From: an uncultured Candidatus Saccharibacteria bacterium
GTDB lineage: Bacteria > Patescibacteriota > Minisyncoccia > Phycocordibacterales > CAYSCM01
Reading direction: 5' to 3'
NCBI GenBank assembly: GCA_964429815.1
Contig: CAYSCM010000001.1
Coordinates: forward strand, 96,001-160,000
Length of the DNA: 64,000 nt
Shown here: positions 3,449 to 40,052 of the stretch, piece after piece
Numbering within the stretch: the stretch's first letter is position 1
Layout of the letters: the number at the start of each line of letters is the position of its first letter
Notes under the pieces: model-generated
Seen by the model: the letters and a program-made list of their open reading frames with translations, nothing else
Told to the model about the DNA's origin: nothing
Databases searched by the model: none
Made by a program: the position numbers and the translations under genes

Positions 3449-3862
3449 TTATTTTAGTGTCACTTTTCCTCCAGCCGCTTCAATTTTCTTTTTGATCTCT
3501 TCTGCCTCTTCTTTCTTGACGCCTTCCTTAAGTTTGGAAGGGGCGCCGTCGACGAGGTCCTTCGCCTCTTTGAGTCCGAGCGCAAGAATTTCTTTGACCA
3601 CCTTGATGACCTGAATCTTCTGAGCGCCCCCATCGGTGAGCTCGATAATGAAGAGGGATTTTTCTTCTGCTGCCTCGCCGCCGCTTGCTCCTGGTGCTGC
3701 CGCAGCCGCGACCGCCGCCGCCGAGACGCCGAATTTCTTCTCAAGCGTCTTTACGAGCTCGTGGAGATCGAGGACCGACATGGTCTCGATCTCTGATATG
3801 AGTTTCTGGAACTTTGCAGGGACTTCAACTGCCTCTGCGGTGACTACTGTTTCATCTGCCAT
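3449..3862 (-). CDS. rplL: 50S ribosomal protein L7/L12
   Basis: 137 aa: Ala-rich hinge ([15 protein letters not shown]) followed by the conserved C-terminal domain ([42 protein letters not shown]...GGKVTLK). Confidence 0.93.
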
Positions 3863-3927
3863 AGATTTTGTAGTTAAGCCCTAAAGCGCTACGCGCTCGG
3901 GCAAGCCGATTCTTTAGGCGATCCGCC

Positions 3928-4419
3928 TTAGGCGGATTTAGCCTTCGCAATCTCGTTGAGAGCGATCACGAAGCGCTGAATCGGCGAGTTGATAAGATTG
4001 ACGAACATTCCATGAAGTACTGGTGTCGGGGGAATGGTGGCGATAGCCATCATCTCTTCCTTTCCTTTGAACGCACCTTTAAAGATACCCCCCACGATCG
4101 CGAGATTTTCCTTGAACTTCTTCGCAAACTGAAAGACCTCGCGCGCGGGGGCGACAGCGTCCGCGCCATAGGCGAGGGCTATCTCTCCTTCGAGCTTGGG
4201 CATTTCTCCTTCGTACTTCCCTTTTTCAAGGGCCTTGCGCACAAGCGTCTTTTTTGCGACGGTATAGCCTATCCCCGCGCTGCGGAGCGTCCTGCGCATC
4301 GCGGTCGTGTCCGCGACTGTGAGTCCCTTGAAGTGGACGAACGCGATAGATTCCGCGTTTTTAGCGATTTCCTCAACTCTCTTGAGGACATCGCCTTTCT
4401 TCTTTTTGCTGATTGCCAT
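3928..4419 (-). CDS. rplJ: 50S ribosomal protein L10
   Basis: MAISKKKKGDVLKRVEEIAKNAESIAFVHFKGLTVADTTAMRRTLRSAGIGYTVAKKTLVRKAL... is typical L10. ATG at 4417-4419; the longer ORF upstream of this ATG is low-complexity and not L10-like. Confidence 0.85.
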   Translation of the reverse strand: MAISKKKKGDVLKRVEEIAKNAESIAFVHFKGLTVADTTAMRRTLRSAGIGYTVAKKTLVRKALEKGKYEGEMPKLEGEIALAYGADAVAPAREVFQFAKKFKENLAIVGGIFKGAFKGKEEMMAIATIPPTPVLHGMFVNLINSPIQRFVIALNEIAKAKSA

Positions 4420-4534
4420 TTTTAGAAATAAAAAAGGCCAGTTAATCCCGGCTGAGTTCGACCACTGCGCAGGTACCTGTCGGATTATCCCTTTCTTAGG
4501 GGCCCTGCGGTCCTTGAGGCCAGGTGGGCTGATA
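4420..4534 (-). promoter_or_regulatory. possible rplJ (L10) leader region
   Basis: Positional inference only: a 115-nt untranslated stretch upstream of rplJ, where the L10(L12)4 autoregulatory leader usually lies. Structure not verified. Confidence 0.25.
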
Positions 4535-5056
4535 TTAGCGAGGAAGCGAGGAGGAGTCAAATGTCTCGCCCTCCCCCGCCTCCTGCTTGAGGCGCTCTGC
4601 GCGCCAGCCGACCATATTGGCAAGAAGCTGGAAGAGGGTACCGACCGCGGAGATGGCAAGGACAAAAATCGGGAACCACGCAAAGGGAGTGAGGAAGTAG
4701 AAGAAGCAGATGAAAAGACCCGCCCAGATCCCGAAGCACCACGGACACGCGAGGAGCTCGGCGATGGTGCGCCGCGGCCCATGGGCGGGCTTCTCCCGCA
4801 CGATGACGTACTCCCCCTCCTCGGTCTGTCCTATCTCCTTATCCAAAAACCAGTCCCGGACGAACTGGGTTATTTTGTCGTAGACGAAGAGACGTGTCGC
4901 GCGGAACGTCGCGAGCGCGATGAGTATCGCATCGAACAAAGAAACGGAGACAGGCAAAAGGTCGATCTTGTAGAGGATGTAGCCAAGCCCAAAGAAAACG
5001 ACGCCAAAAAAGAGCGTGAAGATAAAGTTCCAGAACCCCTGGTCATCTTGGTACAT
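4535..5056 (-). CDS. DUF1360-like membrane protein (CPWC motif)
   Basis: 173 aa, 3-4 TM helices, conserved CPWCFGIW motif. Confidence 0.5.
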   Translation of the reverse strand: MYQDDQGFWNFIFTLFFGVVFFGLGYILYKIDLLPVSVSLFDAILIALATFRATRLFVYDKITQFVRDWFLDKEIGQTEEGEYVIVREKPAHGPRRTIAELLACPWCFGIWAGLFICFFYFLTPFAWFPIFVLAISAVGTLFQLLANMVGWRAERLKQEAGEGETFDSSSLPR

Positions 5057-5266
5057 GCCCGTATATTAACGTAAAAACGCCTTTGCTGCCGCCGCTTCCT
5101 GTCGCAGAGCTTTGCTCTCATCGAGATAACCGACGACAAAGATGACGCCGAAGGAGAGAAGAAGGATGAGCGCAAATCCGAACAAAAACTTAAAAAAAGA
5201 CGTATTGAACATCGCTTGTCTTCCCCACTAGTATACCCGGGAAAACCAAGTCCAAAAATCCGATTC

Positions 5267-6286
5267 TCATTGGGCGATTTCGGTTGTCCGATTATACACC
5301 AGTTTCGCGATATTTTGAATGGTCGTGGCTAAGTCCGAAAAATCCTTTCCCTTGGTCATAATACATATAAGGTACGAATTTTCCTTAGCATACACAATGC
5401 CGCAGTCATGGAGGTTCCGCTCGACGATATCTCCCGCGGGAGTGAAAACCGTGCGCTCCCCAAACTTTTGTGCCACCTTGATGTCTTGGGGCACCGCTGC
5501 CTTGATCCCCTGGGTAAAATCCGGTGCCGTAAGAAACTCCATCGCCTTTTGCGAATATTCAGGGGTCAAATAGGTTGCGTTGTAGAGGACTCGGAAGAAA
5601 TATGAATACTGCTTTGCTGAGATAATGGTGACCGTTGGGCTATCGGCATAGGGCAGGGTGAGTCCAAGGTCAGTATACACTTCCGCAAGCGTTTTGAGAT
5701 CAATGTTTTCATCGAGAAGATGGGTCGCATTGTTATCCGAATTTTCAATCATCGCCTGAATAAGATCGATGATTTGGTAATTGCCTGGTTTTAGTTCGTT
5801 GGGAGAGCGAAATTGTTCCTTCGCGTTGTCATCGAATGAACCGTCGTAGGTGACTACCCTCGTAAGAATGCTCGGGTCGGTTTCGGCCTTCTTAAAATAG
5901 GCGATCATGAGCGGAACCTTGAGCAGGCTTGCAGGTGCGAACGGTTCGTTTTCGTCGATACCAAGCCATGAACCTTTAAGTCCTCGCACGTACACCGAGA
6001 CCTTATCGACTTTCCCCGCCGAAACCTGCTCGTCTATATAATGTTCGATCTCGCTCCGTAGTGACGTGGTTTGTGCCAAGTCATTGTTTTCATAGGTCGG
6101 GCACAAAAGGAGCGGCGATATGAGAGAGTACTTCCCCGTTTGCCGGATAGATGGTTCAACCTGTTCTTGACCGAGAGCAGGAGCCAGCGAAACAAAACCA
6201 ATGTGCAGGAAAAAACCCGCAAAAAGCCCCGCGAGAACAAGGGCAATTGGAGGAATTTTCAAGAGCGTGAAGGAGCGTATATTCAT
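5267..6286 (-). CDS. membrane-anchored class A beta-lactamase-like serine hydrolase
   Basis: N-terminal TM helix. S-x-x-K motif (PASLLKVPL), SDN motif (IENSDNNATHLL) and a KTG-like KFG(E) element in class-A spacing. ATG at 6284-6286. Confidence 0.6.
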   Translation of the reverse strand: MNIRSFTLLKIPPIALVLAGLFAGFFLHIGFVSLAPALGQEQVEPSIRQTGKYSLISPLLLCPTYENNDLAQTTSLRSEIEHYIDEQVSAGKVDKVSVYVRGLKGSWLGIDENEPFAPASLLKVPLMIAYFKKAETDPSILTRVVTYDGSFDDNAKEQFRSPNELKPGNYQIIDLIQAMIENSDNNATHLLDENIDLKTLAEVYTDLGLTLPYADSPTVTIISAKQYSYFFRVLYNATYLTPEYSQKAMEFLTAPDFTQGIKAAVPQDIKVAQKFGERTVFTPAGDIVERNLHDCGIVYAKENSYLICIMTKGKDFSDLATTIQNIAKLVYNRTTEIAQ

Positions 6287-6290
6287 GCCG

Positions 6291-7182: not shown

Positions 7183-10100
7183 TTAGTTCGAACGAGCCTG
7201 AATCAACCCCGCAGACGGAAGTCCCGGAATTGAGTAGCCGTTGCTGAAGTCGACCGTACCATTGGTTCCATCCCAGAGGCTTGCGGTCGTTGTCGAGTTG
7301 CCTGCCCAGACAAAGTTGCTTGAGCTTGTGGCAATTCCTGACGTTGCGACCTGGAAGCCGGAGGTGAGGTTCGTTTGGTAGGCCGTATCGCTCTTGAGGG
7401 TCGTGACTGCCGAGTAGGTTGTTGCCGTACCCGTCACCGTACCACGAAGCTCAAAGTAGTAGGTCTGGCCCGACGGGACCTGAACAGCGTTCGGGGTCGG
7501 CTGGAAGACCTGCGTCGCGCCTTGCGTAGGCGTTGCGATCGTTGCTCCAACTTGGCCGCCGGTGCCCTGACCAGAGATGGCCTGCGAGTACGAGCTGTCC
7601 GTGAAGCCGTAGAGCGATACGTTCGAGATGTTCATCGAGGTCGTCGCGAACGAGAAGGCGAACTTCGCAACTCCGACAGGTCCTGCGCTGTTAGCCGTCA
7701 CTTTGAATCGCATGAGACGACCGTCCGCTACACCTGACGATGGGAGACTGTCGAGCGAGAGCGTTGGGTAGCTCTTGAAGAAGCGCACCCCAGCGGTCGT
7801 GCTTGAGCCGCTACCCTTGACCGTCTGGCCAGAGGAAGCGCCGGTGCCTTCGAAGCTGCTCGGGTCGACCTCAATGAGATCGCCGACGCCGGTCGGTGCG
7901 CTTACGCTGATGCCGGCGATGTCCGCTTTGATGGTGAGCGGAATGTCGGTATCGCGAGTCACCGTGAAGGGCGAGATGAGCGTCGACGTCGCAATGGTGT
8001 TGGCGCCCGTGAGGGTTGCCGTACCAAGGAGCGTCGAACCGCTGTAGATGTAGAGCTGGGTTAGGTCACCCGCGGCAGTCGACGTGTTACCTGCACCAGT
8101 CTTGCCGAGCGAGCTTGCAGCTGCCGTAAGGCCGAGCTTGATGAGGTTAAACGATTCGTTAGCTGAGCGGATGCGGAATACGCCGACCGTAACGCCCGTC
8201 GTACCAGCCGCATTGATTGCGTAGGATGGCGAGGATGGGTCTACGTTGAGCGTAACCGAGGCGCTCGAGGACACTGTGAGCGTACCGCTGTTTCCGGTGG
8301 TCGGAAGGACGGTAAGCGAGTTGCCCGACTGAACACCCGTGTAGGTGATCGTGTCGCCGGAGTTTACACCGAAGATGTAGGTTGTGGCAGCAGTCGCGGC
8401 GCTCGAGAGATTGCACTGGAGCCCGAGGGTCTTGACCGTTCCCTTCGCAATGGTGATCGCATTGTCGAGGGTAATGGTGTTGGCGCCCGCAGCGACCGTG
8501 TTGAGCGTGTTGCTTCCCGTGTTAAGGGGAGTTGCTCCGTCAAAGAGCTGACAACCGCTGAGGTTTCCTACGGCGCCGGTGCCGCTCTCCCTCACCACAA
8601 GCGAGGAAAGGCGGACGTCTTCCGACGAGCTCGCTGCGTCAAGCTGAATGTTGCTGAAGAGCACATTCTGGCTTCCCGCAACGACGTTTTGCGATGCCGG
8701 GGTAGCAGCCGCGGTTACACCGAGGGCTAGCGTACGAACCGTCATCGTGTTCATCGTGAAGTTGGTCGTCGAGATCGTGATCGAGTTACCCGTTACCTGG
8801 CCCGTTGGGCTCGTCCAACTCGACGGAGTCGTGTTGAGGACAACGGTAGAGCCGCTCGGCCATCCCGTCGAAGGGATTTTACCTTTGAGGGTGTAGGTGC
8901 GCGAGCCAACCGGGAAGGTTACCGAGCTCGTGAAGTTGACGATCGAAGCGGACGCATCTACCGGACCAGCAACGACTGCGCCGTTTTGGTCAACGATCGA
9001 CACGCTGGTGATTTCGCTCACTGACGTCGTACCAGTGGAGGTGACGTTGAACTTCATGCCGGAGACCGTAACTGGCTCGCCTGCGAAGTTCGTGACGAAC
9101 CCGCCGAGAACCGTATTGGGGACGTTAACCGGAATGTTCTGTGAAGCGACCGAGGTTGCATTCTGGATGGTCGTCACCGTACCTGCGTTGATCGTTACCG
9201 TTGAGCCTTGGAAGACTGGCTGACCGCTGGTGTAGGTCGTCGCGTGCGTTGAAGCCGTCGAGACCGTACCAGAACCCGCTGCCATCGCAACGCCGTAGCC
9301 ATAGAGCTGGCCCACGAAGTAGACATCCGAGGTCTTGTCGACGTCGAACTCGGCGATGCGACCGGCAGAGTTGTTGCCTGTGAGGTCGCCCTGGAGGACA
9401 ACATCAATCGAGAAGCCCTTCTGAACGAGGATACCGCCCGGGAAGGACGAGGTCACATAGCGTCCGTCAGCAGAGACTACCGTCGGGTAGTTTGTGCCGT
9501 TGATTACCGCGACAAGGTTGCCGACATCGCTTATCGAAGCAGAACCGTTGATGCGGAAGCGGATGGAGAAGAGTTTGAGATCTTCTGCTGAACCCGCGGT
9601 GAAGCGAACGCCTGTGAAGCGAACAGCGGTTGCGCCGATGTTCTTGGTAGTGGCCGCGTTCGGGTCAAGCGAAGAAATCGCTGTCGTGACCGAACCGAGG
9701 CTGAGGGTTCCGTTGACCGTATTTGCCGCACCCGTGATCGGGAGAGCACCTGAAACCGTGGCAGTAGTGTTAACTGCGACTACGGAGATCGCGGCTACTT
9801 GACCGGCATAGCTGCCGAGGCTTGAGCCCATGTTACCCGCAATCGTGTAGTTCGACGTTCCGGCCGGGACCGTAAAGGTTCCGCCGACCGTCGCATTGTG
9901 ATTGCTGTCGAAGGTCTGGGTGTTGCCGATCTGGAGACCGTTGCTGTCGACAAGTACGACGCTTGCAAAGGCCGCATCAGCTGCGAGTCCTGTGCGCTGG
10001 ACCGTGACACCGTTTACGGTGACCGGAGCGCCGCTGTTGTTCGTGATCGTGAAGTTCGTGAATGGAACACGCACTGCGCTCGTTGGCGCCAGCGAGTTCG

Positions 10101-10704
10101 CCGGCTGGGCTCCGCCTGAGACCATGATGGTTCCTGCTGTGGTGCCTGTGCCGCCGGTCGTGCCGGTGCCGCCGGTCGTGCCGGTCGTGCATGCGGCGTT
10201 CACAGCTGCGCGGGTCTTAGGACCGAAGTAGCCGGCCGCCGGAGCTATCCCGTTGGCGGTCTGGTACTTGCCGAGCGCTGCTGCCGTTTTGCTGCCGAAG
10301 TAGGTGGACTCATTGCCGGGAGAACCCGAACCCGATGCTGCAACCTGAGTCGCCGCTTTCGAGTTTAGGAACTGCTGAAGGGCCTTAACATCCGCTCCCG
10401 AGGAACCGACGGTGAGGCTGCGAGACCAGGTGTACGGGCAGACAGCGGCGCCTGAGGTAGTCGTGCCGCCGGTCGTGCCGCCCGTGGTCGGGAGACCAAG
10501 AAGCGAAGCGTTGACATTGTTGATCGTCGCTTGGTCGGCCCCGAAGGACTGGAGGAGCGAGAGGATTGACTGGATCTGGCTCTGCGTAAGTGCCGCTGCC
10601 TGTGCAGGCGAGGTCACGAACGAGAAGAGCGCGATAGCCATCCCGACAGCAACTGCAACCGCCGCAATTTTCATCACGGCTTTGTTTGTAATGCTGGAAT
10701 TCAT
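7183..10704 (-). CDS. very large secreted cell-surface protein with a peptidoglycan-binding (PG_binding_1-like) domain and Thr/Gly linkers
   Basis: Signal peptide (MKIAAVAVAVGMAIALFSFVTSPAQA). PG-binding-like module (…GADVKALQQFLN…YFGSKTAAALGKYQTANGIAPAAGYFGPKTRAAVNAAC). TTGGTGTTGGTGTTAGT linkers. About 1000 aa of Thr/Ser/Gly/Val-rich beta-strand repeats. Start could be 10674 or 10704. Confidence 0.7.
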   Translation of the reverse strand: MNSSITNKAVMKIAAVAVAVGMAIALFSFVTSPAQAAALTQSQIQSILSLLQSFGADQATINNVNASLLGLPTTGGTTGGTTTSGAAVCPYTWSRSLTVGSSGADVKALQQFLNSKAATQVAASGSGSPGNESTYFGSKTAAALGKYQTANGIAPAAGYFGPKTRAAVNAACTTGTTGGTGTTGGTGTTAGTIMVSGGAQPANSLAPTSAVRVPFTNFTITNNSGAPVTVNGVTVQRTGLAADAAFASVVLVDSNGLQIGNTQTFDSNHNATVGGTFTVPAGTSNYTIAGNMGSSLGSYAGQVAAISVVAVNTTATVSGALPITGAANTVNGTLSLGSVTTAISSLDPNAATTKNIGATAVRFTGVRFTAGSAEDLKLFSIRFRINGSASISDVGNLVAVINGTNYPTVVSADGRYVTSSFPGGILVQKGFSIDVVLQGDLTGNNSAGRIAEFDVDKTSDVYFVGQLYGYGVAMAAGSGTVSTASTHATTYTSGQPVFQGSTVTINAGTVTTIQNATSVASQNIPVNVPNTVLGGFVTNFAGEPVTVSGMKFNVTSTGTTSVSEITSVSIVDQNGAVVAGPVDASASIVNFTSSVTFPVGSRTYTLKGKIPSTGWPSGSTVVLNTTPSSWTSPTGQVTGNSITISTTNFTMNTMTVRTLALGVTAAATPASQNVVAGSQNVLFSNIQLDAASSSEDVRLSSLVVRESGTGAVGNLSGCQLFDGATPLNTGSNTLNTVAAGANTITLDNAITIAKGTVKTLGLQCNLSSAATAATTYIFGVNSGDTITYTGVQSGNSLTVLPTTGNSGTLTVSSSASVTLNVDPSSPSYAINAAGTTGVTVGVFRIRSANESFNLIKLGLTAAASSLGKTGAGNTSTAAGDLTQLYIYSGSTLLGTATLTGANTIATSTLISPFTVTRDTDIPLTIKADIAGISVSAPTGVGDLIEVDPSSFEGTGASSGQTVKGSGSSTTAGVRFFKSYPTLSLDSLPSSGVADGRLMRFKVTANSAGPVGVAKFAFSFATTSMNISNVSLYGFTDSSYSQAISGQGTGGQVGATIATPTQGATQVFQPTPNAVQVPSGQTYYFELRGTVTGTATTYSAVTTLKSDTAYQTNLTSGFQVATSGIATSSSNFVWAGNSTTTASLWDGTNGTVDFSNGYSIPGLPSAGLIQARSN

Positions 10705-11406
10705 AACGTAATGGTTACTGTTAATGCCCGTGTGAACGGGCGATTCGCGAGACTCACAGGAGTCGACCCCATGAAGCGCGCGAGGAGTGACCTTTGCATG
10801 AAGTGCTTTCGGCACTCGGTCACGGTTGATAATCACTTTTGTACTATTTCCCTACCCCCGTGGTATCGACCCGGAAGCTAGAGAACTAGTGGCGAAGAGA
10901 GGTGGTTGTTCTGTATGTATTCAGCCGAGGAGGAATAAAGAGTTGCGGTAAACTGAAGCACGAGGGCAGAGCCCTCATTTTTTGAAGAAACGAGTTTTTC
11001 GGTATATGAAATTGTCAACGTCCTTCCGTGCACCCCGGTTCATTTTCCTCAAAAGTTCTGAAATAACTCAGTTAATTCCAAGAAAAACACACTCCCAGAG
11101 CTCCGCCTATTATAGACGCGCTACTTTTGCGCATCAAAACGGACAATGTGGATAACTAACGCCAAAAAAGCCCACAGATTGGTCTTTTTTGGCCGTTTTC
11201 CACGCAGCGCGGAGCATACACAAGAAGACGGCACCGGTCAATGAACATTTCCTCTAAAAAATGGCGCAATACTTGGATACGATGTCAATTTTTAGGCAGG
11301 TTTAGGTTCCTTTGAGAGCTTAAGGCCTTCGGGGACCCTAAAGGGTGGAAGGAGGGGCGCACAAGGTGAAAATGTGGCAACTTAAAAATGTGATAACTCT
11401 GGTAAC

Positions 11407-12346: not shown

Positions 12347-14518
12347 GTGCCCACCATGGCTCGGAAGGAGAAAAAACCTCGATTTTGGTCGTCTTTTTCC
12401 ACTCTTCCGAGCGAAACGAAACGGGGTGTCGTTGCAGTCCTCCTTTTTGCCGCGACTGCTCTATGCATTCTTGCGGCTAACAACATGGCCGGTATCGGCG
12501 GTCGCGCTCTTTATAGCGGTATAAGCTATCTTTTTGGGCTCGGTTACTACCTTGTACCCATACTTACGCTCACGCTTGGCGTTATCTTGGTGCGTCCCCT
12601 GGAGCGGGAAGTCGGCCTCCTCAAAATCGCCGGAGCGCTTCTCCTCTTCTTTTCCGCGCTTGGCCTCGTCGACACCGTCGCTAAAAGCCGTGGTGGAGAG
12701 GTAGGAAACCTCATATCATCTCCGCTACAAGACCTCTTCGATCTTCCGGCTACCGTAGCGATCCTCGTAACGCTTCTTCTGATATCCTTCTTCATCCTTT
12801 TTGAGCTTAAATTCATCCTGCGAATGCCTGGCTGGCTTGCGACCGTCAGACTATTCAGGCGGAAGAGCGAAGACATCGATGAACCGGCCATAACGAGTTA
12901 TCAGGACGGCGAAGAGGAAGATGTCGAAGAAGACGAGGAAGAGCTTAATGAGGACGAAGAGGAGGACGAGGTGGAACCGAGAATCACCAAATCTCCCTTG
13001 GTTCCTGACTCCCCTGCCCCCGCCGGTTTTCGCTCTCGCATGCGCGGTGCATATATTCCTCCGCCACTGTCTCTTTTTGAACGTGACAAGGGTAAGCCTG
13101 GTGTTGGCGACATCAAAGCAAACGCAAACATAATCAAGCGTACCTTCCAGAACTTCGGTATCAGCGTTGAAATGGACGAGGTCTCCATCGGACCGACGGT
13201 CACTCGCTACGCGCTAAAACCCGCCGAGGGTGTGCGCCTCAGTAAGATCGTTTCGCTCCAGAACAACCTTGAGCTCGCCCTCGCCGCTCATCCGGTGCGC
13301 ATCGAAGCGCCCATTCCTGGAAAGTCGCTTGTTGGCATCGAAGTACCGAACTCGACGAAAGCTACCGTCGGCTTCGCGACACTCCTTTCTTCGACGGAAT
13401 TTACCTCGTCGGATAAGCCGCTTCTCCTTGCACTCGGCCGCGATATCGCTGGCTCCCCCATCCTCGCTAACTTGGCTAAAATGCCTCACGCTCTTATCGC
13501 GGGAGCCACCGGCTCGGGCAAGTCCGTGACTATCCATGCGCTCATAAATTCATTGCTCTATAGAAATTCCCCCGAGCAACTCCGGTTCATCATGATCGAT
13601 CCCAAGCGCGTCGAGCTCACTCTCTACAACAACATCCCCCACCTTCTCACCCCCGTCATCACTGATCCGAAAAAGACCATTCTCGCCCTCAAATGGGCCG
13701 GAAAAGAAATGGAGCGGCGCTACAACATTCTTGAAGCCGAGGGTGCGCGCGACATAGACTCCTACCACAAAAACGTCCTCGCGCCTGCCCTCGAAAAAAC
13801 CCATGGAAATGACGATGCTCCGGTCGAGACCATGCCCTACATCATCGTCATCATCGATGAACTCGCCGATATCATGCAGACCTACCCGCGCGAACTTGAA
13901 GCCGCGGTCGTGCGTCTCGCCCAGATGAGCCGCGCGGTCGGTATTCACCTCATTCTCTCCACGCAGCGACCGTCGGTGAACGTCATCACGGGCCTCATTA
14001 AGGCGAACGTTCCGGCCCGCATCGCACTTCAAGTCGCCTCCCAGATCGACTCGCGCACCATTCTCGACGGCTCCGGTGCGGAAAAGCTCCTCGGCGCAGG
14101 AGACATGCTCTATCTCTCCGGCGATATGGGCAAGCCGGTACGCCTCCAGGCTCCCTATCTCTCGGAGTCCGAGGTGAAAAAGGTCGCCAAGTATCTCAAG
14201 GACAACTATGCGGACCTTATCTCGGACGAAATACAATTTAGCGATGAAAGTAAGGGCGTTGGCCTCTCCCCCGCGTTCGAAGATGAGGAGATAGACGACG
14301 ACATGTATCAAGAGGCAAAACAAATCGTCGAAGAAGCCGGCAAGGCTTCGACGAGCTACCTTCAGCGCAAGCTTCGTATCGGCTACTCTCGCGCCGCACG
14401 CATCATGGACATACTCGAAGAGCGCGGCGTCATCGGGCCTGCGGACGGAAGCAAGCCGCGCGAAGTGCTCGGCGCTTCCGGAAGCAAAGAGGGTGAAGAG
14501 GGTGGCGAAGACGTATGA
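12347..14518 (+). CDS. ftsK: DNA translocase FtsK
   Basis: N-terminal 4-TM domain, acidic linker (EEEDVEEDEEELNEDEEEDE), motor domain with Walker A GATGSGKS and the conserved …IIVIIDELADIM…HLILSTQRPSVNVITGLIKANVPARIALQV…, and a C-terminal gamma wHTH (YLQRKLRIGYSRAARIMDILEERGVIG). Confidence 0.92.
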   Translation: MPTMARKEKKPRFWSSFSTLPSETKRGVVAVLLFAATALCILAANNMAGIGGRALYSGISYLFGLGYYLVPILTLTLGVILVRPLEREVGLLKIAGALLLFFSALGLVDTVAKSRGGEVGNLISSPLQDLFDLPATVAILVTLLLISFFILFELKFILRMPGWLATVRLFRRKSEDIDEPAITSYQDGEEEDVEEDEEELNEDEEEDEVEPRITKSPLVPDSPAPAGFRSRMRGAYIPPPLSLFERDKGKPGVGDIKANANIIKRTFQNFGISVEMDEVSIGPTVTRYALKPAEGVRLSKIVSLQNNLELALAAHPVRIEAPIPGKSLVGIEVPNSTKATVGFATLLSSTEFTSSDKPLLLALGRDIAGSPILANLAKMPHALIAGATGSGKSVTIHALINSLLYRNSPEQLRFIMIDPKRVELTLYNNIPHLLTPVITDPKKTILALKWAGKEMERRYNILEAEGARDIDSYHKNVLAPALEKTHGNDDAPVETMPYIIVIIDELADIMQTYPRELEAAVVRLAQMSRAVGIHLILSTQRPSVNVITGLIKANVPARIALQVASQIDSRTILDGSGAEKLLGAGDMLYLSGDMGKPVRLQAPYLSESEVKKVAKYLKDNYADLISDEIQFSDESKGVGLSPAFEDEEIDDDMYQEAKQIVEEAGKASTSYLQRKLRIGYSRAARIMDILEERGVIGPADGSKPREVLGASGSKEGEEGGEDV

Positions 14519-14865: not shown

Positions 14866-14907
14866 TTCTTCCGTTTTTTATTACCAACTCTAGTACTAGG
14901 CGCGTGT

Positions 14908-15960: not shown

Positions 15961-15991
15961 CAAAATTGCCGCCGAAGAGGCGGTCGTTTTG

Positions 15992-16312: not shown

Positions 16313-16323
16313 GAAGAGTGGTC

Positions 16324-16914: not shown

Positions 16915-17056
16915 GGGTGAGTGGGAGAGGGCTGGCGACCGGCCCGCCCCTTCACTCCGCTACTATAATCGACCTCGTACGCCAATGACAACCATAGTGG
17001 CTTCCAAAGGTTACACATTGTCAGGCGCTAGAAACTTGGCTATGATGCGCCCTACT

Positions 17057-17632: not shown

Positions 17633-17673
17633 CAAAAAAACCGGGATATATCCCGGTTTTTTTGTTGAAGTCT

Positions 17674-17868: not shown

Positions 17869-17877
17869 GGATTCGCA

Positions 17878-28900: not shown

Positions 28901-29545
28901 GCGTACCGTTACCGCCTCCTCCGTGATGTCCTTGTAGGTGTGGTCCATCGCGATCTCAGCCTTAGCGAGCGGTGTTTCGCAGTGCGGACAGTACATGAGG
29001 ACACGCTTACCTTCGTAGAGAAGGCCTTTCCCGTTCATTTCCGAGAGCGCCCACCAAACGCTCTCGATGTAGTCGTTGTCCATCGTCTTGTAGGCGTCCT
29101 TGAACTCGACCCAGCGTCCGATGCGGTCCACGTAGCGCTCCCAATCGCTCGCGAACTGGAGCACGGAGGCACGCGCTTCGGCATTAAACTTAGCGACCCC
29201 TATTCTTTCAATGTCTTTCTTCGTTTTGAGGCCGAGCTTCTGCTCGATGAGCGTCTCGATAGGCAGCCCGTGGCAATCCCACCCCCACTGTCGAAGTACG
29301 CGGTAGCCGCGCATGGTCTTGTAGCGCGGGAATACATCTTTGACGACCGACGAGAGGAGGGATCCGTGGTGCGGAAGCCCGGTGGCGAACGGAGGGCCGT
29401 CATAGAAAATAAATTCCCCGCGGGGGGCGTCTTTTCCTTCGGATTTCTTGAAAATGCCGCGCTCTTTCCAGTATGCCAACACCTTCTCTTCCCGCGCCGC
29501 AGTATCGCTCTTTGCGGATTCGTGAGCCTTCATTGAGAGCTTCAT
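26000..29545 (-). CDS. ileS: isoleucyl-tRNA synthetase (type-2-like) with an inserted histidine-phosphatase (PGAM-like) domain
   Basis: HIGH region (…PPFATGLPHHGS…), CP1 editing domain (…WTTTPWTLPGNVALAV…), WTISRNRYWASPLPIW, KMSKSKGN, anticodon-binding domain. Between …VIGSLAELRERAKGSGN and DLHRPYTDTLTLLD…IPEVIDCWVESGSMP lies a ~200-aa block (approx. nt 27400-28000) with RHG (TIMRHGQAKSN) and SH (ILIVSHESPLREL) signatures of the histidine phosphatase superfamily. Start at 29545 or 29533. Confidence 0.9.
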   Translation of the reverse strand: MKLSMKAHESAKSDTAAREEKVLAYWKERGIFKKSEGKDAPRGEFIFYDGPPFATGLPHHGSLLSSVVKDVFPRYKTMRGYRVLRQWGWDCHGLPIETLIEQKLGLKTKKDIERIGVAKFNAEARASVLQFASDWERYVDRIGRWVEFKDAYKTMDNDYIESVWWALSEMNGKGLLYEGKRVLMYCPHCETPLAKAEIAMDHTYKDITEEAVTVRFRITNATAYNLPENTYLLAWTTTPWTLPGNVALAVGPDIDYSLVYRGKKEMEGLNFTETGGSHYLIAKNLVDKTFAPLGRTYSTERDFKGSELVGITYEPLYAVAPVVSHPGKHHEVLAADFVSTKEGTGIVHTAVMYGEDDFALGQKEGLPMIQLLSPSAAYNELVPEFLHGRYIKEAEGDIKADLDKRGLLFAREQHTHSYPHCYRCGTPLIYNAVSSWFINIQKIKKRMLSENETITWVPEHLKRGRFKNILESAPDWTISRNRYWASPLPIWKEKGGSRVLVIGSLAELRERAKGSGNRYTIMRHGQAKSNEEGFVSSRPDADNHLTKLGELQVREAGTRIDKPDVIFASPVVRARESAELLAKQWGISPNDIIYDERLSEVNVGTFDGKPVSAYHQFYGEFSVAYVKRPDGGENYTDVRVRVGRFIYDVDQRYAKKNILIVSHESPLRELHALVHGNSIPRTASEVGRFDAVWLDNAEFKVFAFKPLPHDEAFEIDLHRPYTDTLTLLDAEGREYERIPEVIDCWVESGSMPFAQSHYLGSALPHFEPRSGFLRRRRGYPADFIAEYIAQTRTWFYYMHAVAVALFGRTSFKNVVSTGNILAADGNKMSKSKGNYTDPLTLLDRYGADAYRFYLMGSVVMQSEDIQFRDEDVRDIHNRVVGMLRNCLKFYELYGKEDDRTTNARQSRNILDRWMFARLDETTAEVADAFERYDTPRACRSLRAFIEDYSTWYLRRSRERVKGTDAADKRFALAGQREALSIVAKLVAPLMPFIAEEIHLAVGAQGESVHLLEWPKAGDVDFTLLAQMKEVRDVVTAGLEARAKVGIRVRQPLSSLTARERIPAEFFSIIEEELNVKKFLVDQKLLEPVSLDTTLTKELMREGDFRELVRAIQDSRKELALKPNDRILINVRADSPGRNLVEEYLSQLKLETGAMDVRFEPDIAGDTVELDAGAVYIAIAKL

Positions 29546-34837: not shown

Positions 34838-34958
34838 ACTGTCTTCACTATACGGTGAGTTCGAGCGGAGCTGTAGCCACTTATGCACGGGCGTTTGACA
34901 CTCTCATAGGCCCCCGCTAGGCTTGCCGCAGTCTTGTTCAACAACCGAGGGGAAACCC

Positions 34959-35840
34959 ATGGACTACAAACCGCTCTCCGAGCGTACCCCCGACACGCAG
35001 TATCGGGAGCGCCTCGTCGATATCCTCGAAAACGGCATTCTCGCTAAAGGTTTGCCGCAAGGCATCGGCGCACTCACCCGCTTCGGAACGCTCCGACCGA
35101 TGGTCTTTGACCTGCGCAATGGGGTCCCACTCATCACGGAGCGCAAACTTGGCTCCTGGAAAAGTGCGGTCGCCGAAATTCTCGCATTCATCAATGGAGC
35201 GCGTGACATTGATGAAATCGAATCGTTCGGCGTCAACAAGGCGTTCTGGAGCCCCTATCGCGGGAAAGGTACCGAGCTTGGGCTTTCCCCCAACGACATG
35301 GGGCCTGGCTCCTACGGTGGTGTCTTTGGTCACTATGAGCGGGCCGACGGGAGTACGTTCAATCAGTTCGAACTCCTCCTCGAGCAAATGCAAAACTTCC
35401 CGAAACTTCGTACACACCGCGTCGTGAATAACAGGCCTGAATACACGGCTCGAGGGCCGAATCGTAAGGTCATTGTGGCTCCTTGCCACGGCGAACTTCA
35501 CCTGCGAGACCTGGGAAGAATTGACATGCGTATGGATCAACGCTCTGCCGATTTTCCGATCGGAGTGCCGCACAATATGATTCAATACGCCGCTCTTCTT
35601 CTCATGATCTGTCAGGTCCTTCGTCGTGAGCCAGGCAACTTCATCCACTCCTTTGCGGATGCCCACATCTACGAGAATCAGGTGGAGTCGGCCAAGGAGC
35701 TCGTCTCCCGGCCGGCAAAACCCTTCCCTACACTCCATCTAAACCCGTCGGTGACAAATCTCTTCGACTTCAGGATTGAACACTTCGAGCTGCGGGAATA
35801 CGATCCGCACCCGCCACTGTCGATTCCCTACGCGCCGTAA
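34959..35840 (+). CDS. thyA: thymidylate synthase (ThyA) family enzyme, divergent
   Basis: ThyA-like motifs in order: …RPMVFDLRNGVPLITERKLGSWKSAVAEILAFI…, nucleophile region VIVAPCHGELHL, …DQRSADFPIGVPHNMIQYAALLLMICQV…, …HSFADAHIYENQ…. Divergent from canonical ThyA. Confidence 0.7.
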   Translation: MDYKPLSERTPDTQYRERLVDILENGILAKGLPQGIGALTRFGTLRPMVFDLRNGVPLITERKLGSWKSAVAEILAFINGARDIDEIESFGVNKAFWSPYRGKGTELGLSPNDMGPGSYGGVFGHYERADGSTFNQFELLLEQMQNFPKLRTHRVVNNRPEYTARGPNRKVIVAPCHGELHLRDLGRIDMRMDQRSADFPIGVPHNMIQYAALLLMICQVLRREPGNFIHSFADAHIYENQVESAKELVSRPAKPFPTLHLNPSVTNLFDFRIEHFELREYDPHPPLSIPYAP

Positions 35841-35892: not shown

Positions 35893-36360
35893 ATGGCAAA
35901 AAAGTATGTCGACCGAAACGCTGCCCTAGGACGAAAAAACTACTTACAGGTGATAGACCGCATTATCAAAGACCGTGTGTGCCCCTTTTGTGAAGAACAT
36001 TTTTTGAAATACCACACAAAACCTATTTTGAAGCGCGGCTCCCACTGGCTCCTGACGAAAAACATGAATCCCTACGCGGGTACGAAGCATCATTTCCTGT
36101 TCGTACATCGACGACATATTGAAAATCCGACTTCGATGAGCGACGCGGCATGGAAGGAGCTCCTCGCGCATATTCGCTACGTTGTTAAAAAATTCAAATT
36201 GCCGGGAGGAGGTCTTTATGTGCGTTTTGGCGATCCGCGCTATTCGGCCGCCTCGGTCGCCCATCTTCACGCCAACGTGATTCTCGGCACAAAACGGGGG
36301 AAACATACTGAGCCGATCGGTGTTGACCTTAGTTATAAGAAAAAACGCCCTCGTTTCTAG
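35893..36360 (+). CDS. HIT-family (histidine triad) hydrolase
   Basis: CPFCE near the N-terminus and the triad VAHLHANVILG. ATG at 35893. Confidence 0.75.
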   Translation: MAKKYVDRNAALGRKNYLQVIDRIIKDRVCPFCEEHFLKYHTKPILKRGSHWLLTKNMNPYAGTKHHFLFVHRRHIENPTSMSDAAWKELLAHIRYVVKKFKLPGGGLYVRFGDPRYSAASVAHLHANVILGTKRGKHTEPIGVDLSYKKKRPRF

Positions 36361-37223
36361 CTAGAAACGAGGGCGTCGTGAAGTTCCACGCGAACGATCT
36401 CGACGTTGCGAGAACGGAGGGTGTCGGCTCCCGCCACCAACGAGTACCCTTCAGCGTAGAAGAGTCTTCGAATGCCGGCGTTTGCGATGGCGGCGGCACA
36501 CGGAGGACACGGGAAGGTGGTGCAGTAGAGGTCACAACCGTCCGTGGAGATTCCGCGTTTCGCTGCCGCAGAGATCAGGCCGTTCTCCCCATGGAGGGAG
36601 AGAGTGGCATCAATGTGCTGCCCCGGCTCGAAGTTGCTTCGGGGATCGCCAAGAACGTAAGCGGTTTGCTCAAGCGGCAGATGGGTGTTGAAGGCCACGA
36701 GGAGTGGTTTCCCATCCCGGCACAGCAGCGCCCCAATTTGACGCCACCAGTCGGGAGAGCGTTTCGCCAAGGCGTACGCCCGCCGCATGAGTTCTCGATC
36801 AAGACCCTCTCTTGATACGACGACACCCTCTTCGGGATTCTTTTTATGCGTCGTCGTCGTCCAATCCCAGCGTAGTTTCCATCCGGAGTCGAACTCCACT
36901 TCTCGATCGGAGAAGTACATCTTCGCAAAGAGCCGGGCGATATCTTCGTCCGGCATCGCGATCCGACGAGCGGCAAGGGTATGGAAGTTCTCCCTCGTGA
37001 GTACCTCAACCCGCTCGAAGAGGTAGAGTGCGCGGATCATGGCCGCTGCGGTCTGGGGCTTCAATCCCGGCAAATGCCGCACCAACGACTTGTGCTCGCT
37101 GATGAAGTCTTCGCCGAGAATCCACAGCTCTCCGCCGGCGTATGTATGGAAGAGCTCCACATACCCGCTGTGTGGAGCGGGTATGTAGGCAACGAGCGTT
37201 TTAAGAGCCGGTGCCGAGTCCAC
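36357..37223 (-). CDS. dCMP/CMP deaminase zinc-binding domain protein with an uncharacterised ~140-aa N-terminal domain
   Basis: C-terminal half: …DRELMRRAYALAKRS…GALLCRDGKPLLVAFNT…HGENGLISAAAKRG…TFPCPPCAAAIANAGIRRLFY (H-x-E and PCxxC zinc ligands). The N-terminal 140 aa have no recognised family. Confidence 0.75.
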   Translation of the reverse strand: MDSAPALKTLVAYIPAPHSGYVELFHTYAGGELWILGEDFISEHKSLVRHLPGLKPQTAAAMIRALYLFERVEVLTRENFHTLAARRIAMPDEDIARLFAKMYFSDREVEFDSGWKLRWDWTTTTHKKNPEEGVVVSREGLDRELMRRAYALAKRSPDWWRQIGALLCRDGKPLLVAFNTHLPLEQTAYVLGDPRSNFEPGQHIDATLSLHGENGLISAAAKRGISTDGCDLYCTTFPCPPCAAAIANAGIRRLFYAEGYSLVAGADTLRSRNVEIVRVELHDALVSS

Positions 37224-37884
37224 GGTCCATCTCCTCGATCAGTTGACCAAGACGTGCGCGCAAGTCCTTCATCATCTCGAGCTTGCCATCCATGGCGAGC
37301 CTGCGAATGATGGCTGTTGTCGACGTTTCCGCTTGCGGCGGCAAATTTACCAGGTGCTCGCAGTACCTCTTGATACCATCGAGCGCTGGCAAATCCTTTG
37401 TCGACGTGGAGACGATACGCACATCGTGCTTCACGAGCTTGAAGAGCGTATCGGCCTCGTATTGCGGCACGATGATGTCCACTTCCCGCATTTGCCCGAG
37501 AACTTCGCAGCGCTCGGCCATTGGCGTCAGCGGGCGTGTCGGCCCTTTACGGGCTTTTGTGAGCTCGTCGGTATCGATGCCGACCACCATCACGAGTTCA
37601 GCCTCGGGATAGAGTTTCTTCGCTTCGATCTTGCCGGTCTCGATGTACCTGCCGTGACCGACGTGGTACATATCCCATACGCCGGTCGTAAAGGCCACAA
37701 CGCAGCCCATTGAATGGACGTGATCGACCACCTCAACAAGCTCCTGGTGGTTGTCGAAGTAGCGATCTTCAAAGGTCGCCCTCCCTTTCAAAATGCGCAA
37801 CGCGCGCTTATGAACGGGATTCGGGATCGTCCTTTGGTGCCCGTCCGTGTGTGGAAGGGGCGCCACCTTGGTGATGTCGTTCAT
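37201..37884 (-). CDS. cytidylyltransferase-family nucleotidyltransferase (RfaE-domain-II/TagD/RibL-like)
   Basis: …VAFTTGVWDMYHVGHGRYIE… (HxGH), then …LVMVVGIDTDELTKARKGPTRPLTPMAERCEVLGQMREVDIIV…, matching the heptose-1-P adenylyltransferase / glycerol-3-P cytidylyltransferase layout. ATG at 37882-37884. Confidence 0.7.
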   Translation of the reverse strand: MNDITKVAPLPHTDGHQRTIPNPVHKRALRILKGRATFEDRYFDNHQELVEVVDHVHSMGCVVAFTTGVWDMYHVGHGRYIETGKIEAKKLYPEAELVMVVGIDTDELTKARKGPTRPLTPMAERCEVLGQMREVDIIVPQYEADTLFKLVKHDVRIVSTSTKDLPALDGIKRYCEHLVNLPPQAETSTTAIIRRLAMDGKLEMMKDLRARLGQLIEEMDRGLGTGS

Positions 37885-38007: not shown

Positions 38008-38505
38008 ATGCCGGAGAGAGTGAGCATCATCGCCGCGCTTGGGAAAAACCGCGAGCTCGGCAAGGACAACAAGCTCCTCTGGCGTATCCCAGAGGATCTA
38101 AAGCGCTTTAGGGAGCTCACGATGGGACATCCCGTCGTGATGGGAAGACGTACCTTCTGCTCCATTCTCGCCTCGCTTGGTAAGCCCCTCCCCGGGCGCA
38201 CCAGCATCGTCATTACCCGGGAAGTCGGTTGGGGTAAGCCGGGCGCCGTCGTCGTCAACTGTTTCGAGATGGCACTTCGCAGAGCCCGTGCGCTCTCCGA
38301 CCAGGAAGTCTTCATTGGCGGCGGGGCGCAGATCTACGAGGAGGCACTTCCCTTCACCCATCGCCTCTACCTCACTCTCATCGATGAGCAGAAGGATGGC
38401 GATGTGTTCTTTCCAGAATACGAACGCGAGTTTACGAGAACACTCTTTGAGAAGAGGGGTGTTCACGAAAACGTACACTACCGATTCGTAACCCTTGAAC
38501 GATAG
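38008..38505 (+). CDS. folA: dihydrofolate reductase
   Basis: …SIIAALGKNRELGKDNKLLWRIPEDLKRFRELTMGHPVVMGRRTF… and the …FIGGGAQIYEEAL… DHFR signature. Confidence 0.93.
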   Translation: MPERVSIIAALGKNRELGKDNKLLWRIPEDLKRFRELTMGHPVVMGRRTFCSILASLGKPLPGRTSIVITREVGWGKPGAVVVNCFEMALRRARALSDQEVFIGGGAQIYEEALPFTHRLYLTLIDEQKDGDVFFPEYEREFTRTLFEKRGVHENVHYRFVTLER

Positions 38506-38595: not shown

Positions 38596-38853
38596 ATGGA
38601 CTCTCTAAAAGCCTTCTGGGACGTTCTCCGAGAGGACTGGCAAGCTCTCGCGGTCGGATTGATTGCTCAAGTGTCTCTACAGAGCATACCCTTGCTTCCA
38701 CTTCTTATTTTCGAGGATAAAGTTCTCGACAAATATCGCGAACCTGCGTTTATTTGTTCTTTTTTTTGGATACTGCTTACCGTTTTTATTGGAACATACG
38801 TGTACGATCGCATGTGCGATACGTTCGAACACAAACGCCGTCAGCTCCGCTGA
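38596..38853 (+). CDS. small membrane protein (85 aa)
   Basis: Two predicted TM helices. Confidence 0.35.
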   Translation: MDSLKAFWDVLREDWQALAVGLIAQVSLQSIPLLPLLIFEDKVLDKYREPAFICSFFWILLTVFIGTYVYDRMCDTFEHKRRQLR

Positions 38854-38886
38854 CGGCGTTTTATCTTTTTACTTGAGTTGGCTCAC

Positions 38887-39309
38887 CTATTTTACTTCGA
38901 TCCCCATCGAGCGAGCAGAGCCCTCGATGATGCGCATGGCACCCTCGATATCTTTGGCATTGAGATCCGCCATTTTCTTCTCAGCGATCTCGCGAACCTG
39001 CGCCTTGGTAACAACGCCAGCGCGAGAGAGCGGCGTCTTCCCCGAACCTTTCTCGATACCGGCCGCTTTCATGAGGAGGTTACTTGCCGGCGGGGTCTTC
39101 AGGATGAAGTCGTAGCTCCTATCTTCGTAGACGGAAATCTCGACCGGGATCATGTCTCCCATCATCGGACGCGTTTTTTCGTTAAATTTATTGACGAAGT
39201 CGCCGATGTTGATACCCGCCTGACCGAGCGTCGGGCCAAGCGGTGGTGCGGGAGTCGCCTTTCCGGCGGGAGCTATGAGCTTTACCTTTTTGATTACTTT
39301 CTTTGCCAT
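38887..39309 (-). CDS. rplK: 50S ribosomal protein L11
   Basis: [46 protein letters not shown]… is canonical L11. Confidence 0.95.
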
Positions 39310-39326
39310 GAGAGTAGAAATCTAGC

Positions 39327-39872
39327 TTACATCTTCCGAACCTGCAAGAAATCAAGTTCGACCGGCGTTTCGCGGCCGAACATCGGAACCATAATCTTCA
39401 CCTTGCCGCGCTCTTCATCCACCTCCCCGATGCGCCCCTCGAGATCCTTGAACGGCCCGTCAACAATGACGACCGGCTCATCAAGGTTGAAGTCGATCTT
39501 GTGTTTTACCGTCTCGCTCTTCATGCGACGGAAGAGGCTTTCGATCTCTTCCTCCGTAAGCGGCACTGGATTGACTCCCGAGCCAACGAAACCGGTCACG
39601 CGCGGCGTGTTGCGCACCACGTACCAAGAATTGTCGTCGACAACCATGTCGACGAGCACGTAGCCTGGGTATATTTTTTCTTCCTCTTCGACGCGCTTGC
39701 CGCCTTTCACCTTTATCTTGCGCTCCGTCGGCACGACCACGTCGAAAATCTTTTCGCCAACGCCGAGCGATTCTATGCGCTGCTTGAGATTGCGCGCGAC
39801 CGCGTTTTCGTAGCCGGCGTAGGTGTGGATCGCGTACCAGTGCCGCTCACCCGTTGAAGCTTGTTTTGCCAT
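39327..39872 (-). CDS. nusG: transcription termination/antitermination factor NusG
   Basis: …WYAIHTYAGYENAVARNLKQR… NGN domain and the C-terminal KOW (…VVIVDGPFKDLEGRIGEVDEERGKVKIMVPMFGRETPVELDF…). Confidence 0.93.
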   Translation of the reverse strand: MAKQASTGERHWYAIHTYAGYENAVARNLKQRIESLGVGEKIFDVVVPTERKIKVKGGKRVEEEEKIYPGYVLVDMVVDDNSWYVVRNTPRVTGFVGSGVNPVPLTEEEIESLFRRMKSETVKHKIDFNLDEPVVIVDGPFKDLEGRIGEVDEERGKVKIMVPMFGRETPVELDFLQVRKM

Positions 39873-39875
39873 AAT

Positions 39876-40052
39876 TTAGATTATTTTTTGAAGCCCGTAG
39901 GTAAAGGCTGCGTCGAAGACGCCGAGAAAGAGCGACACGCCGATCGAGATGCCGATGACGAGAAGTGTAAAGACGATCGCTTGGCGACGGGTCGCCCACG
40001 ATACGTGCCGAAGTTCGGCCCTGGTTTCCTTGAGATAGTCGATGAGGCTCAT
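39876..40052 (-). CDS. secE: preprotein translocase subunit SecE
   Basis: 58 aa, MSLIDYLKETRAELRHVSWATRRQAIVFTLLVIGISIGVSLFLGVFDAAFTYGLQKII, single TM, directly upstream of nusG. Confidence 0.85.
   Translation of the reverse strand: MSLIDYLKETRAELRHVSWATRRQAIVFTLLVIGISIGVSLFLGVFDAAFTYGLQKII

Follow-up and report, generated by a model that had tools for sequence, protein, structure and literature searches.

In E. coli and B. subtilis, the genes secE-nusG-rplKAJL-rpoBC are contiguous, and this is the canonical bacterial order. The 64-kb stretch of DNA analyzed in this work, referred to here as the window, is part of a 501,704-bp NCBI contig and departs from this arrangement in that its secE-nusG-rplK and rplJ-rplL blocks are separated and no rplA, the gene for ribosomal protein L1, follows rplK. 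This raises the question of whether rplA has been lost, has moved elsewhere in the genome, or is missing due to an assembly error. The evidence compiled below indicates that the window very probably belongs to a high-GC member of the Paceibacteria (OD1-L1; Kaiserbacteria/Adlerbacteria-like), in whose common ancestor rplA was lost once and in which rplJ-rplL form a separate unit.

Gene content of the two ribosomal protein clusters

The features identified at both loci are listed in Table 1. The secE-nusG-rplK cluster spans positions 40052-38887 on the minus strand, and the exact NusG protein is present on three independent Logan contigs. A sequence-only reading of the window had proposed that this cluster is followed by a small membrane ORF and folA without an intervening rplA, and Pfam, tblastn, and L1 HMM searches bear this out, with the addition that both neighbors are on the strand opposite to rplK and converge on it across a GC-rich hairpin. 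This hairpin is probably a bidirectional terminator, a function suggested by its sequence and position. The 85-aa ORF had no Pfam match and no tblastn match across 80 related loci and is, as judged from these searches, species-specific. The cytidylyltransferase-like gene adjoins the dCMP deaminase gene in relatives too, and the latter belongs to a dTMP-synthesis neighborhood beside rplK(A) that is found in L1-less and L1-bearing relatives alike; thyA is near rplK in 46 of the 80 related loci.

Table 1. Features of the rplK and rplJ-rplL loci in the window
Feature	Coordinates	Strand	Basis and remarks
secE (58 aa)	39876..40052	-	Pfam SecE, E 8e-14; also called on Logan contigs L001-L003
nusG (181 aa)	39327..39872	-	Pfam NusG, E 9e-29, and KOW domain
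rplK, L11 (140 aa), final gene of the operon	38887..39309	-	Pfam Ribosomal_L11_N and Ribosomal_L11, E 1e-25 to 1e-27
Palindromic GC-rich hairpin, 13-bp stem	38833..38861	.	Terminator scan and the sequence itself; lies between the stop codon of rplK and that of the 85-aa ORF facing it
85-aa ORF, two hydrophobic segments (two-TM)	38596..38853	+	Hydropathy analysis; called as gene on L001-L003
folA (dihydrofolate reductase)	38008..38505	+	Pfam DHFR_1, E 1e-45; convergent with rplK
Cytidylyltransferase-like gene (227 aa per Logan contigs)	37201..37884	-	Pfam CTP_transf_like
dCMP/cytidine deaminase	36357..37223	-	Pfam dCMP_cyt_deam_1
thyA (thymidylate synthase)	34923..35840	+	Pfam Thymidylat_synt, E 5e-52
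DUF1360 membrane protein, directly upstream of rplJ	4535..5056	-	Pfam DUF1360, E 6e-23
rplJ, L10 (163 aa)	3928..4419	-	Pfam Ribosomal_L10, E 6e-19
rplL, L7/L12 (137 aa)	3449..3862	-	Pfam Ribosomal_L12_N and Ribosomal_L12, E 9e-26
p215, basic 215-aa protein with N-terminal winged helix, downstream of rplL	2562..3209	-	Conserved; weak wHTH Pfam match only
Mechanosensitive-channel family protein (230 aa)	1710..2402	-	Pfam MS_channel_1st_1, E 1e-17; syntenic in relatives
151-aa ORF	1193..1648	-	Called as gene on L084
23S rRNA gene, 5' part, cut by window edge	1..692	-	Rfam LSU_rRNA_bacteria, 435 bits, model positions 1-604

The rplJ-rplL cluster spans positions 4419-3449, also on the minus strand. 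The L10 domain is located inside a longer ORF (3928-4782, minus strand), of which the 163-aa frame is the true gene according to the calls on contigs L084, L085, and L107. The Pfam and Rfam identities agree with the earlier claim that this cluster is far from rplK, at a distance of 34.5 kb, and is followed by unrelated genes and a 23S rRNA gene, with no rpoB. Both rpoB and rpoC are absent from the window, where the sole ORFs of more than 1000 aa encode a PG_binding protein and IleRS. No 16S rRNA gene was found in the window upstream of the 23S rRNA gene, which is preceded by a promoter-like site (1110-1081) and a terminator-like site (1165-1143). Ribosomal protein leaders, including the Rfam L10 leader, and other RNAs were not detected near rplJ and rplK. 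The DUF1360 gene is kept upstream of rplJ in five relatives (L086, L088, L090, L092, and L104), and the 151-aa ORF, which had no Pfam match, has a 43% identical copy in L086. The window has a GC content of 55% and also encodes rpsF-ssb-rpsR and a class II aminoacyl-tRNA synthetase, as called on the Logan contigs.

MAG contigs may be chimeric, and one or more chimeric joins could have removed rplA or parted the two clusters. However, nine Logan contigs, assembled independently from runs SRR12313479, SRR12313480, and SRR12313482, together span both junctions, namely, rplK/folA and DUF1360-rplJ-rplL-...-23S, and are 100% identical to the window without gaps; misassembly, which the sequence-only reading had named as a possible objection, is therefore excluded. 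The same gene orders were also seen in dozens of unrelated assemblies, and the chance of an assembly or binning artifact is practically negligible.

Absence of L1 from the window and from most related loci

A tblastn search of the window with the E. coli and Thermus L1 proteins returned nothing better than an E value of 0.02. An L1 HMM, built to include seven Parcubacteria L1 proteins, was applied unfiltered to all six-frame segments of at least 25 aa of the window and gave no match at E ≤ 10, and L1 remnants were absent from every six-frame segment of the window. In the source genome, the L1 search covered these 64 kb. In approximately 1.2 Mb of L1-less related loci (61 around rplK and 10 around rplJ), the HMM detected no L1, and among all the loci fetched its matches were confined to seven L1-bearing loci and the unrelated locus L105.

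The uL1-lacking Parcubacteria termed OD1-L1, a group ascribed to Brown et al. in 2015, reportedly correspond to the GTDB class Paceibacteria, an equivalence said to go back to Tsurumaki et al. in 2022 and to a 2025 MBE article (msaf288). OD1-L1 owes its name to the absence of rpL1 (PMC5220378), and complete genomes confirmed that L1 is lost (PMC9297842). The loss in Paceibacteria is stated explicitly in surveys of complete and high-quality genomes, which report rplA to be absent genome-wide (PMC5220378, PMC9297842, PMC12641178). L1 loss is already known, and the L1-less split layout is ordinary for this class. Two further traits have been reported for the uL1-less group. The gene for the GTPase Der (EngA) is missing (PMC12641178), and no Der-like protein was found among the ORFs scanned in the window. 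The interaction between anti-SD and SD sequences is often lost (PMC9297842); SD-like motifs were found upstream of 4 of the 34 gene starts in the window, as compared to a background of 16%, a scarcity that fits the reported anti-SD loss. This evidence is indirect, as the 3' end of the 16S rRNA lies outside the window.

Phylogenetic position and gene order

Among 185,579 species genomes, the closest L11 genes were all from Paceibacterota/Parcubacteria MAGs, with a best identity of 80% and no genome of this same species in the GTDB set, and the best named matches were Paceibacterota, Kaiserbacteria, and Adlerbacteria. L1 is encoded immediately after rplK in 7 of the 68 informative related genomes and is not found there in the other 61. 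In a two-protein neighbor-joining tree (NusG and L11, 78 taxa), for which outgroup class names were taken from MAG titles, 100 of 100 bootstraps place the seven L1-bearing loci in a clade of their own, set apart from the window, which is nested among about 65 species that form a clade without L1 after rplK. Phylogenetic placement and gene order comparison, both suggested as checks by the sequence-only reading, thus uphold its view that the missing rplA matches the published loss in OD1-L1 Parcubacteria and that the layout, both parts of which are conserved in relatives, is a lineage marker.

The L1-bearing loci (Moraniibacteriota, Kerfeldbacteria, and others) have the order rplK-rplA-dCMP deaminase-thyA-folA, whereas L1-less loci have rplK followed by a convergent folA, an arrangement observed in 32 of the 61 L1-less loci. 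In the L1-bearing sister lineages, rplJ-rplL are not within 10 kb of rplK-rplA. Since these sisters show the split too, L1 loss did not cause it, and the comparison shows that rplJL had already parted from rplK(A) before this loss. It also localizes the presumed ancestral deletion to the junction between rplK and the dTMP genes. At the other locus, the order rplJ-rplL-p215-MS channel-23S recurs in ten metagenome contigs (L086, L090-L092, L094, L097, L098, and L100-L102) with L10 identities of 50-79% and GC contents of 38-53%; a 23S rRNA gene follows rplJL in about 8-10 related loci.

A possible alternative is that rplA merely left the rplK operon and survives elsewhere, which would amount to a rearrangement and not a loss. 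In its favor, the search covered 64 kb of a genome that measures 500 kb or more, relatives keep the L1 stalk of the rRNA, and relocation does happen in this lineage, as is clear from the move of rplJ-rplL and rpoBC away from rplK. However, the firm nesting of the window within the L1-less clade, the lack of L1 around rplK and rplJ in the L1-less relatives, and the genome-wide absence reported in the surveys cited above make relocation quite improbable, and a single ancestral loss remains the preferred reading.

The L1 stalk and the protein p215

It has been reported that helix 78 of the 23S rRNA, and with it the L1 stalk, is kept despite rplA loss (PMC12641178). Since the 23S rRNA gene of the window is cut at model position 604, before the L1 stalk, the evidence comes from relatives. 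In the closest one, L086, helices 76-78 are intact with respect to the Rfam model, including the GGGAG / AAAUACCA stalk core, and in L094, L097, L098, L100, and L101 the stalk is unchanged in length, and helix 77 shows compensatory changes. Such a well-preserved L1-binding core could mean that something still binds there. Stalk retention neither proves nor disproves L1 loss.

The conserved protein p215 was considered as a cryptic L1 and rejected: it contains only a noise-level tblastn match (E 6), its alignment to L1 by hhalign had a probability of 0.6%, and its AF2 model (pLDDT 82) had ArsR/MarR winged-helix regulators, and not L1, as top Foldseek matches. A search of PDB sequences with p215 gave no match. 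It is also the candidate if L1 were replaced by a non-homologous or unrecognizably divergent stalk-binding protein: p215 is basic (44 K+R versus 26 D+E), is similar in size to L1, has 1656 homologues in Patescibacteria, and is syntenic with rplJL and 23S across the clade (10 loci), and the stalk core of L086 is intact. However, apart from the negligible hhalign score and the resemblance of a confident model to DNA-binding regulators, several L1-less relatives are changed at otherwise conserved stalk positions, e.g., 2125 and 2172, which points to relaxed constraint rather than to a protein that still binds there. Such a replacement is considered extremely doubtful. Very little weight is likewise given to the broader proposals that a non-homologous protein, p215 or another lineage-specific one, occupies or regulates the L1 stalk, or that the conserved rplJ-rplL-p215-channel-23S block is an undescribed unit coupling the expression of stalk proteins and rRNA.

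Proposed history and significance

According to the favored scenario of a single loss, the ancestral order would have been that of the L1-bearing sisters, with secE, nusG, rplK, rplA, dCMP deaminase, thyA, and folA on one strand and rplJ-rplL already elsewhere. In Paceibacteria, rplA would then have been deleted without a detectable remnant, leaving an operon that terminates at rplK, here presumably at the hairpin, and folA/thyA would have been inverted such that folA converges on rplK. As a separate unit, rplJ-rplL would precede the winged-helix gene, the gene for the mechanosensitive channel, and a 23S rRNA gene that is unlinked and has a promoter-like site of its own, and rpoB and rpoC would be located elsewhere. 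Because helices 76-78 are retained, we infer that the L1 stalk of a working ribosome may consist of RNA only, and L1 could not exert its classical translational feedback on the L11 operon.

The layout, in which secE-nusG-rplK end without rplA, often facing folA, and rplJ-rplL precede an unlinked 23S rRNA gene, is a quick and reliable synteny marker for assigning contigs to L1-less Paceibacteria. The published studies give the presence or absence of L1 and not the gene order; the present analysis adds, as a description, the orders rplK|folA and rplJ-rplL-wHTH-MS channel-23S. Beyond annotation, the finding matters little: how a ribosome with an RNA-only stalk functions and what controls rplK once its repressor is gone are questions already posed in the literature, and the window adds no testability to them.

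Comparison with known systems

No essential difference was noted between the window and OD1-L1/Paceibacteria. They share an rplK without rplA after it, the retention of helices 76-78 of the 23S rRNA, as seen in the relatives of the window, and the lack of a Shine-Dalgarno signal upstream of genes, and the window is placed among MAGs of Paceibacterota, Kaiserbacteria, Vogelbacteria, and Campbellbacteria. With the L1-bearing sister Parcubacteria (L056, L059, L066, L067, and L077, from Moraniibacteriota and Kerfeldbacteria) it has in common secE-nusG-rplK followed by the dCMP deaminase/thyA/folA neighborhood as well as the non-adjacency of rplJ-rplL and rplK, but these sisters have rplA directly after rplK and folA/thyA on the rplK strand, whereas the window lacks rplA and has an inverted folA. 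Compared to the canonical cluster, the internal order of secE-nusG-rplK and of rplJ-rplL is the same and both blocks are on the same strand, whereas the contiguity from rplK through rplA, rplJ, rplL, and rpoB to rpoC is broken by the missing rplA, by the distance between the blocks, and by an rplL that is not followed by rpoB/rpoC.

Organization of the two clusters

In the 64-kb window (GC 54.8%), rplJ-rplL forms a unit separate from the rplK operon, which terminates without rplA. The positions that the sequence-only reading had assigned to secE-nusG-rplK (Pfam) and to rplJ-rplL at 3.45-4.42 kb (Pfam, independent gene calls) proved exact. That reading had also placed a small membrane ORF and folA directly downstream of rplK; both are present, but on the opposite strand and converging on rplK, with a spacer of 33 nt between rplK and the 85-aa ORF. 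As it further stated, rplL is followed by unrelated genes and a 23S rRNA gene, and not by rpoB (Pfam, Rfam, ORF scan). A promoter-like site of its own precedes the 23S gene. Both rpoB and rpoC are absent from the window, in which the only ORFs of >1000 aa encode a PG_binding protein and IleRS. Searches for known ribosomal protein leader RNAs ahead of rplK and rplJ found none.

Features of the two clusters (window coordinates)
Feature	Position	Strand	Basis or context
secE	39876-40052	-	Pfam
nusG	39327-39872	-	Pfam
rplK	38887-39309	-	Pfam
Hairpin, 13-bp stem	38833-38861		Between stop codons of rplK and 85-aa ORF
85-aa ORF, two hydrophobic segments	38596-38853	+	Convergent with rplK
folA	38008-38505	+	Convergent with rplK
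rplJ, 163 aa	3928-4419	-	Independent gene calls; Pfam L10 domain inside longer ORF 3928-4782(-)
rplL	3449-3862	-	Pfam
215-aa protein (p215)	2562-3209	-	First gene after rplL
Mechanosensitive (MS)-channel family protein	1710-2402	-	After p215
151-aa ORF (p151)	1193-1648	-	After MS-channel gene
Terminator-like site	1165-1143		Between p151 and 23S gene
Strong promoter-like site, TTGACA-18-TATACT	1110-1081		Ahead of 23S gene
Bacterial 23S rRNA, first 604 model positions	1-692	-	Rfam

Misassembly, which had been named as a possible refutation, is ruled out: exact-protein look-ups retrieved nine Logan contigs, derived from the three runs SRR12313479, SRR12313480, and SRR12313482, that match the window gaplessly at 100% identity across both junctions. 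They span SIMPL-p270-secE-nusG-rplK, the convergent p85-folA, and CTP-transferase-dCMP deaminase on one side and TPR-beta-lactamase-DUF1360-rplJ-rplL-p215-MS channel-p151-23S start on the other. A single NCBI contig (501,704 bp) records both clusters.

The highly conserved secE-nusG-rplK operon is flanked by the 85-aa membrane ORF (p85) and, upstream of secE, by a basic 270-aa ORF (p270; 40182-40994, -). Neither has a Pfam match or a tblastn match among 80 related loci, and both are species-specific ORFans.

Absence of L1 and comparison with relatives

Searches of the window with E. coli and Thermus L1 (tblastn) returned only noise (best E 0.02, inside ileS). An L1 HMM, built from seven Parcubacteria L1 proteins of related loci and the two references, was run unfiltered on all six-frame stop-to-stop segments of at least 25 aa from the window and from every locus fetched; it matched the seven L1-bearing loci at E values of 1e-104 to 1e-113 and gave no match in the window at E<=10. 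The lack of rplA beside rplK is thus upheld for the 64-kb window.

A scan of the L11 protein against one genome per GTDB species yielded 80 loci, from genomes titled Paceibacterota, Parcubacteria, Vogel-, Kaiser-, Campbell-, Taylorii-, and Nomurabacteria; since the best identity was 80%, this set holds no same-species genome. In 68 loci the sequence extends for 1.5 kb or more beyond rplK; rplA lies immediately downstream in seven of them (Moraniibacteriota, two Kerfeldbacteria, and four others), and none occurs within up to 10 kb in the remaining 61. Convergent folA was found in 32 of these 61, in 18 of them within 1.5 kb. In a neighbor-joining tree of NusG plus L11, 100/100 bootstraps separate the window from a group made up of the seven L1-bearing loci and no more than four further leaves. 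The window matches the L1-less relatives in gene order and placement, and the sequence-only reading, that the missing rplA fits the published Parcubacteria L1 loss, is correct. Because of this placement, rplA is very likely absent from the entire source genome.

The L1-bearing loci show the single-strand order secE > nusG > rplK > rplA > dCMP deaminase > thyA > folA, whereas the L1-less loci, and likewise the window, show rplK > folA< (CTP-transferase > dCMP deaminase >) thyA<. These orders indicate that the dTMP-synthesis genes are ancestral neighbours of rplK(A). Neither rplJ nor rplL occurs within 10 kb of rplK in any locus, L1-bearing or L1-less. Judging from these relatives, rplJL would have separated from rplK(A) before L1 was lost, and the loss may have been accompanied by an inversion at this very junction.

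For the rplJ cluster, 20 loci were obtained by scanning metagenomes with L10. The close relative L086 (402-kb contig Ga0207952_1000008; L10 identity 79%) and loci L090-L092, L094, L097, L098, and L100-L102 (L10 identity 50-58%, GC 38-53%) share the arrangement rplJ-rplL-p215-MS channel-(small ORF)-23S 5' end. In none of the related rplJ loci does rpoB follow rplL; L1 lies upstream of L10 only in L105, an unrelated locus (35% identity).

The 215-aa protein is not L1

Being basic, approximately L1-sized, and syntenic across the clade, p215 was tested as a cryptic L1. This was rejected: its only Pfam signals are weak winged-helix ones, there was no match to PDB sequences, the hhalign probability against L1 was 0.6%, and a confident AF2 model (pLDDT 81.8, pTM 0.71) has ArsR, SmtB, and MarR winged-helix regulators as its best, though weak, Foldseek matches (E about 0.01). 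Most likely, p215 is a DNA-binding regulator with a predicted N-terminal winged helix and an extra C-terminal alpha/beta domain. Its 1656 homologues are unannotated and essentially all from Patescibacteria, and the family is fixed between rplL and the MS-channel gene, upstream of 23S.

Other genes in the window

Two genes upstream of rplJ, this reduced CPR genome carries a class A beta-lactamase-family gene (5267-6286, -; Pfam Beta-lactamase2, E 1.5e-31). The sole Pfam match of a 1217-aa protein (7183-10836, -) is a peptidoglycan-binding domain; L086 has a 39% identical copy at the equivalent site upstream of rplJ.

The catalytic domain of the 1181-aa IleRS (26000-29545, -) is split between its two halves by a His_Phos_1 domain (Pfam, histidine-phosphatase superfamily) at about aa 520-700. 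All of the best 120 homologues (52-64% identity; Paceibacterota, Kaiser- and Adlerbacteria) share this insertion, and its catalytic residues R519, H520 (RHG motif), R570, and H659 are invariant in 30 aligned sequences. No paper on it was found in a limited literature set.

Logan gene calls revealed rpsF-ssb-rpsR (17674-18810, -) and a 432-aa class II aminoacyl-tRNA synthetase (tRNA-synt_2b plus HGTP_anticodon; 22218-23516, -), which naive longest-ORF picking at 55% GC masks with longer opposite-strand or overlapping ORFs. A 97-nt tRNA-Ser(GCT) called by ARAGORN within the 3' portion of the metS coding sequence (19669-19765, -) is probably a false positive, because no Rfam hit reaches the gathering score there.

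23S rRNA, the L1 stalk, and translation initiation

Across H76-78, the 23S rRNA of L086 can be aligned with the Rfam model, and both conserved cores, UAGGUGGGAG and UGAAAUACCA, are intact. Five further relatives have an unchanged stalk length, compensatory H77 changes, and some changes at the normally conserved positions 2125 and 2172. Over E. coli 2120-2178, in a comparison whose CPR sequences all come from L1-less relatives, G2125 and U2172 vary in the L1-less relatives L094, L097, L098, and L100, and the same four keep helix 77 by compensatory double changes, e.g., GGUGG/CCACC to GACGG/CCGUU.

The 23S gene of the window is not preceded by a 16S gene, which means that the rRNA genes are unlinked; the order in L086 is 23S - tRNA - 5S (14201-18515). 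The L086 23S spans 3709 nt against 2925 model positions; the excess of some 780 nt is inserted sequence and probably represents an intron or IS.

Shine-Dalgarno-like motifs (GGAG, GAGG, or AGGA) precede 4 of the 34 gene starts, versus 16% of random 17-mers, i.e., without enrichment window-wide. Instead, the leaders of the ribosomal protein genes are rich in A/T.

Relation to known systems

The split layout without rplA is ordinary for an entire bacterial class and has already been published, and the novelty of the conserved gene orders (rplK with convergent folA; rplJ-rplL-p215-MS channel-23S) is descriptive only. In the E. coli L11 operon, L1 acts as translational repressor (PMC2175363), a feedback that presumably could not operate here. 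E. coli survives L1 loss, although its growth and translation rate are impaired (cited in PMC5220378), and this tolerance suggests that ribosomes whose L1 stalk consists of RNA only would be viable. Tsurumaki et al. (2022; PMC9297842) confirmed the absence of uL1 in a Parcubacteria subgroup from complete genomes and reported that uL1-lacking lineages are largely devoid of the anti-Shine-Dalgarno motif; the stalk and Shine-Dalgarno data of the window and its relatives agree with the published work on this L1-less lineage.
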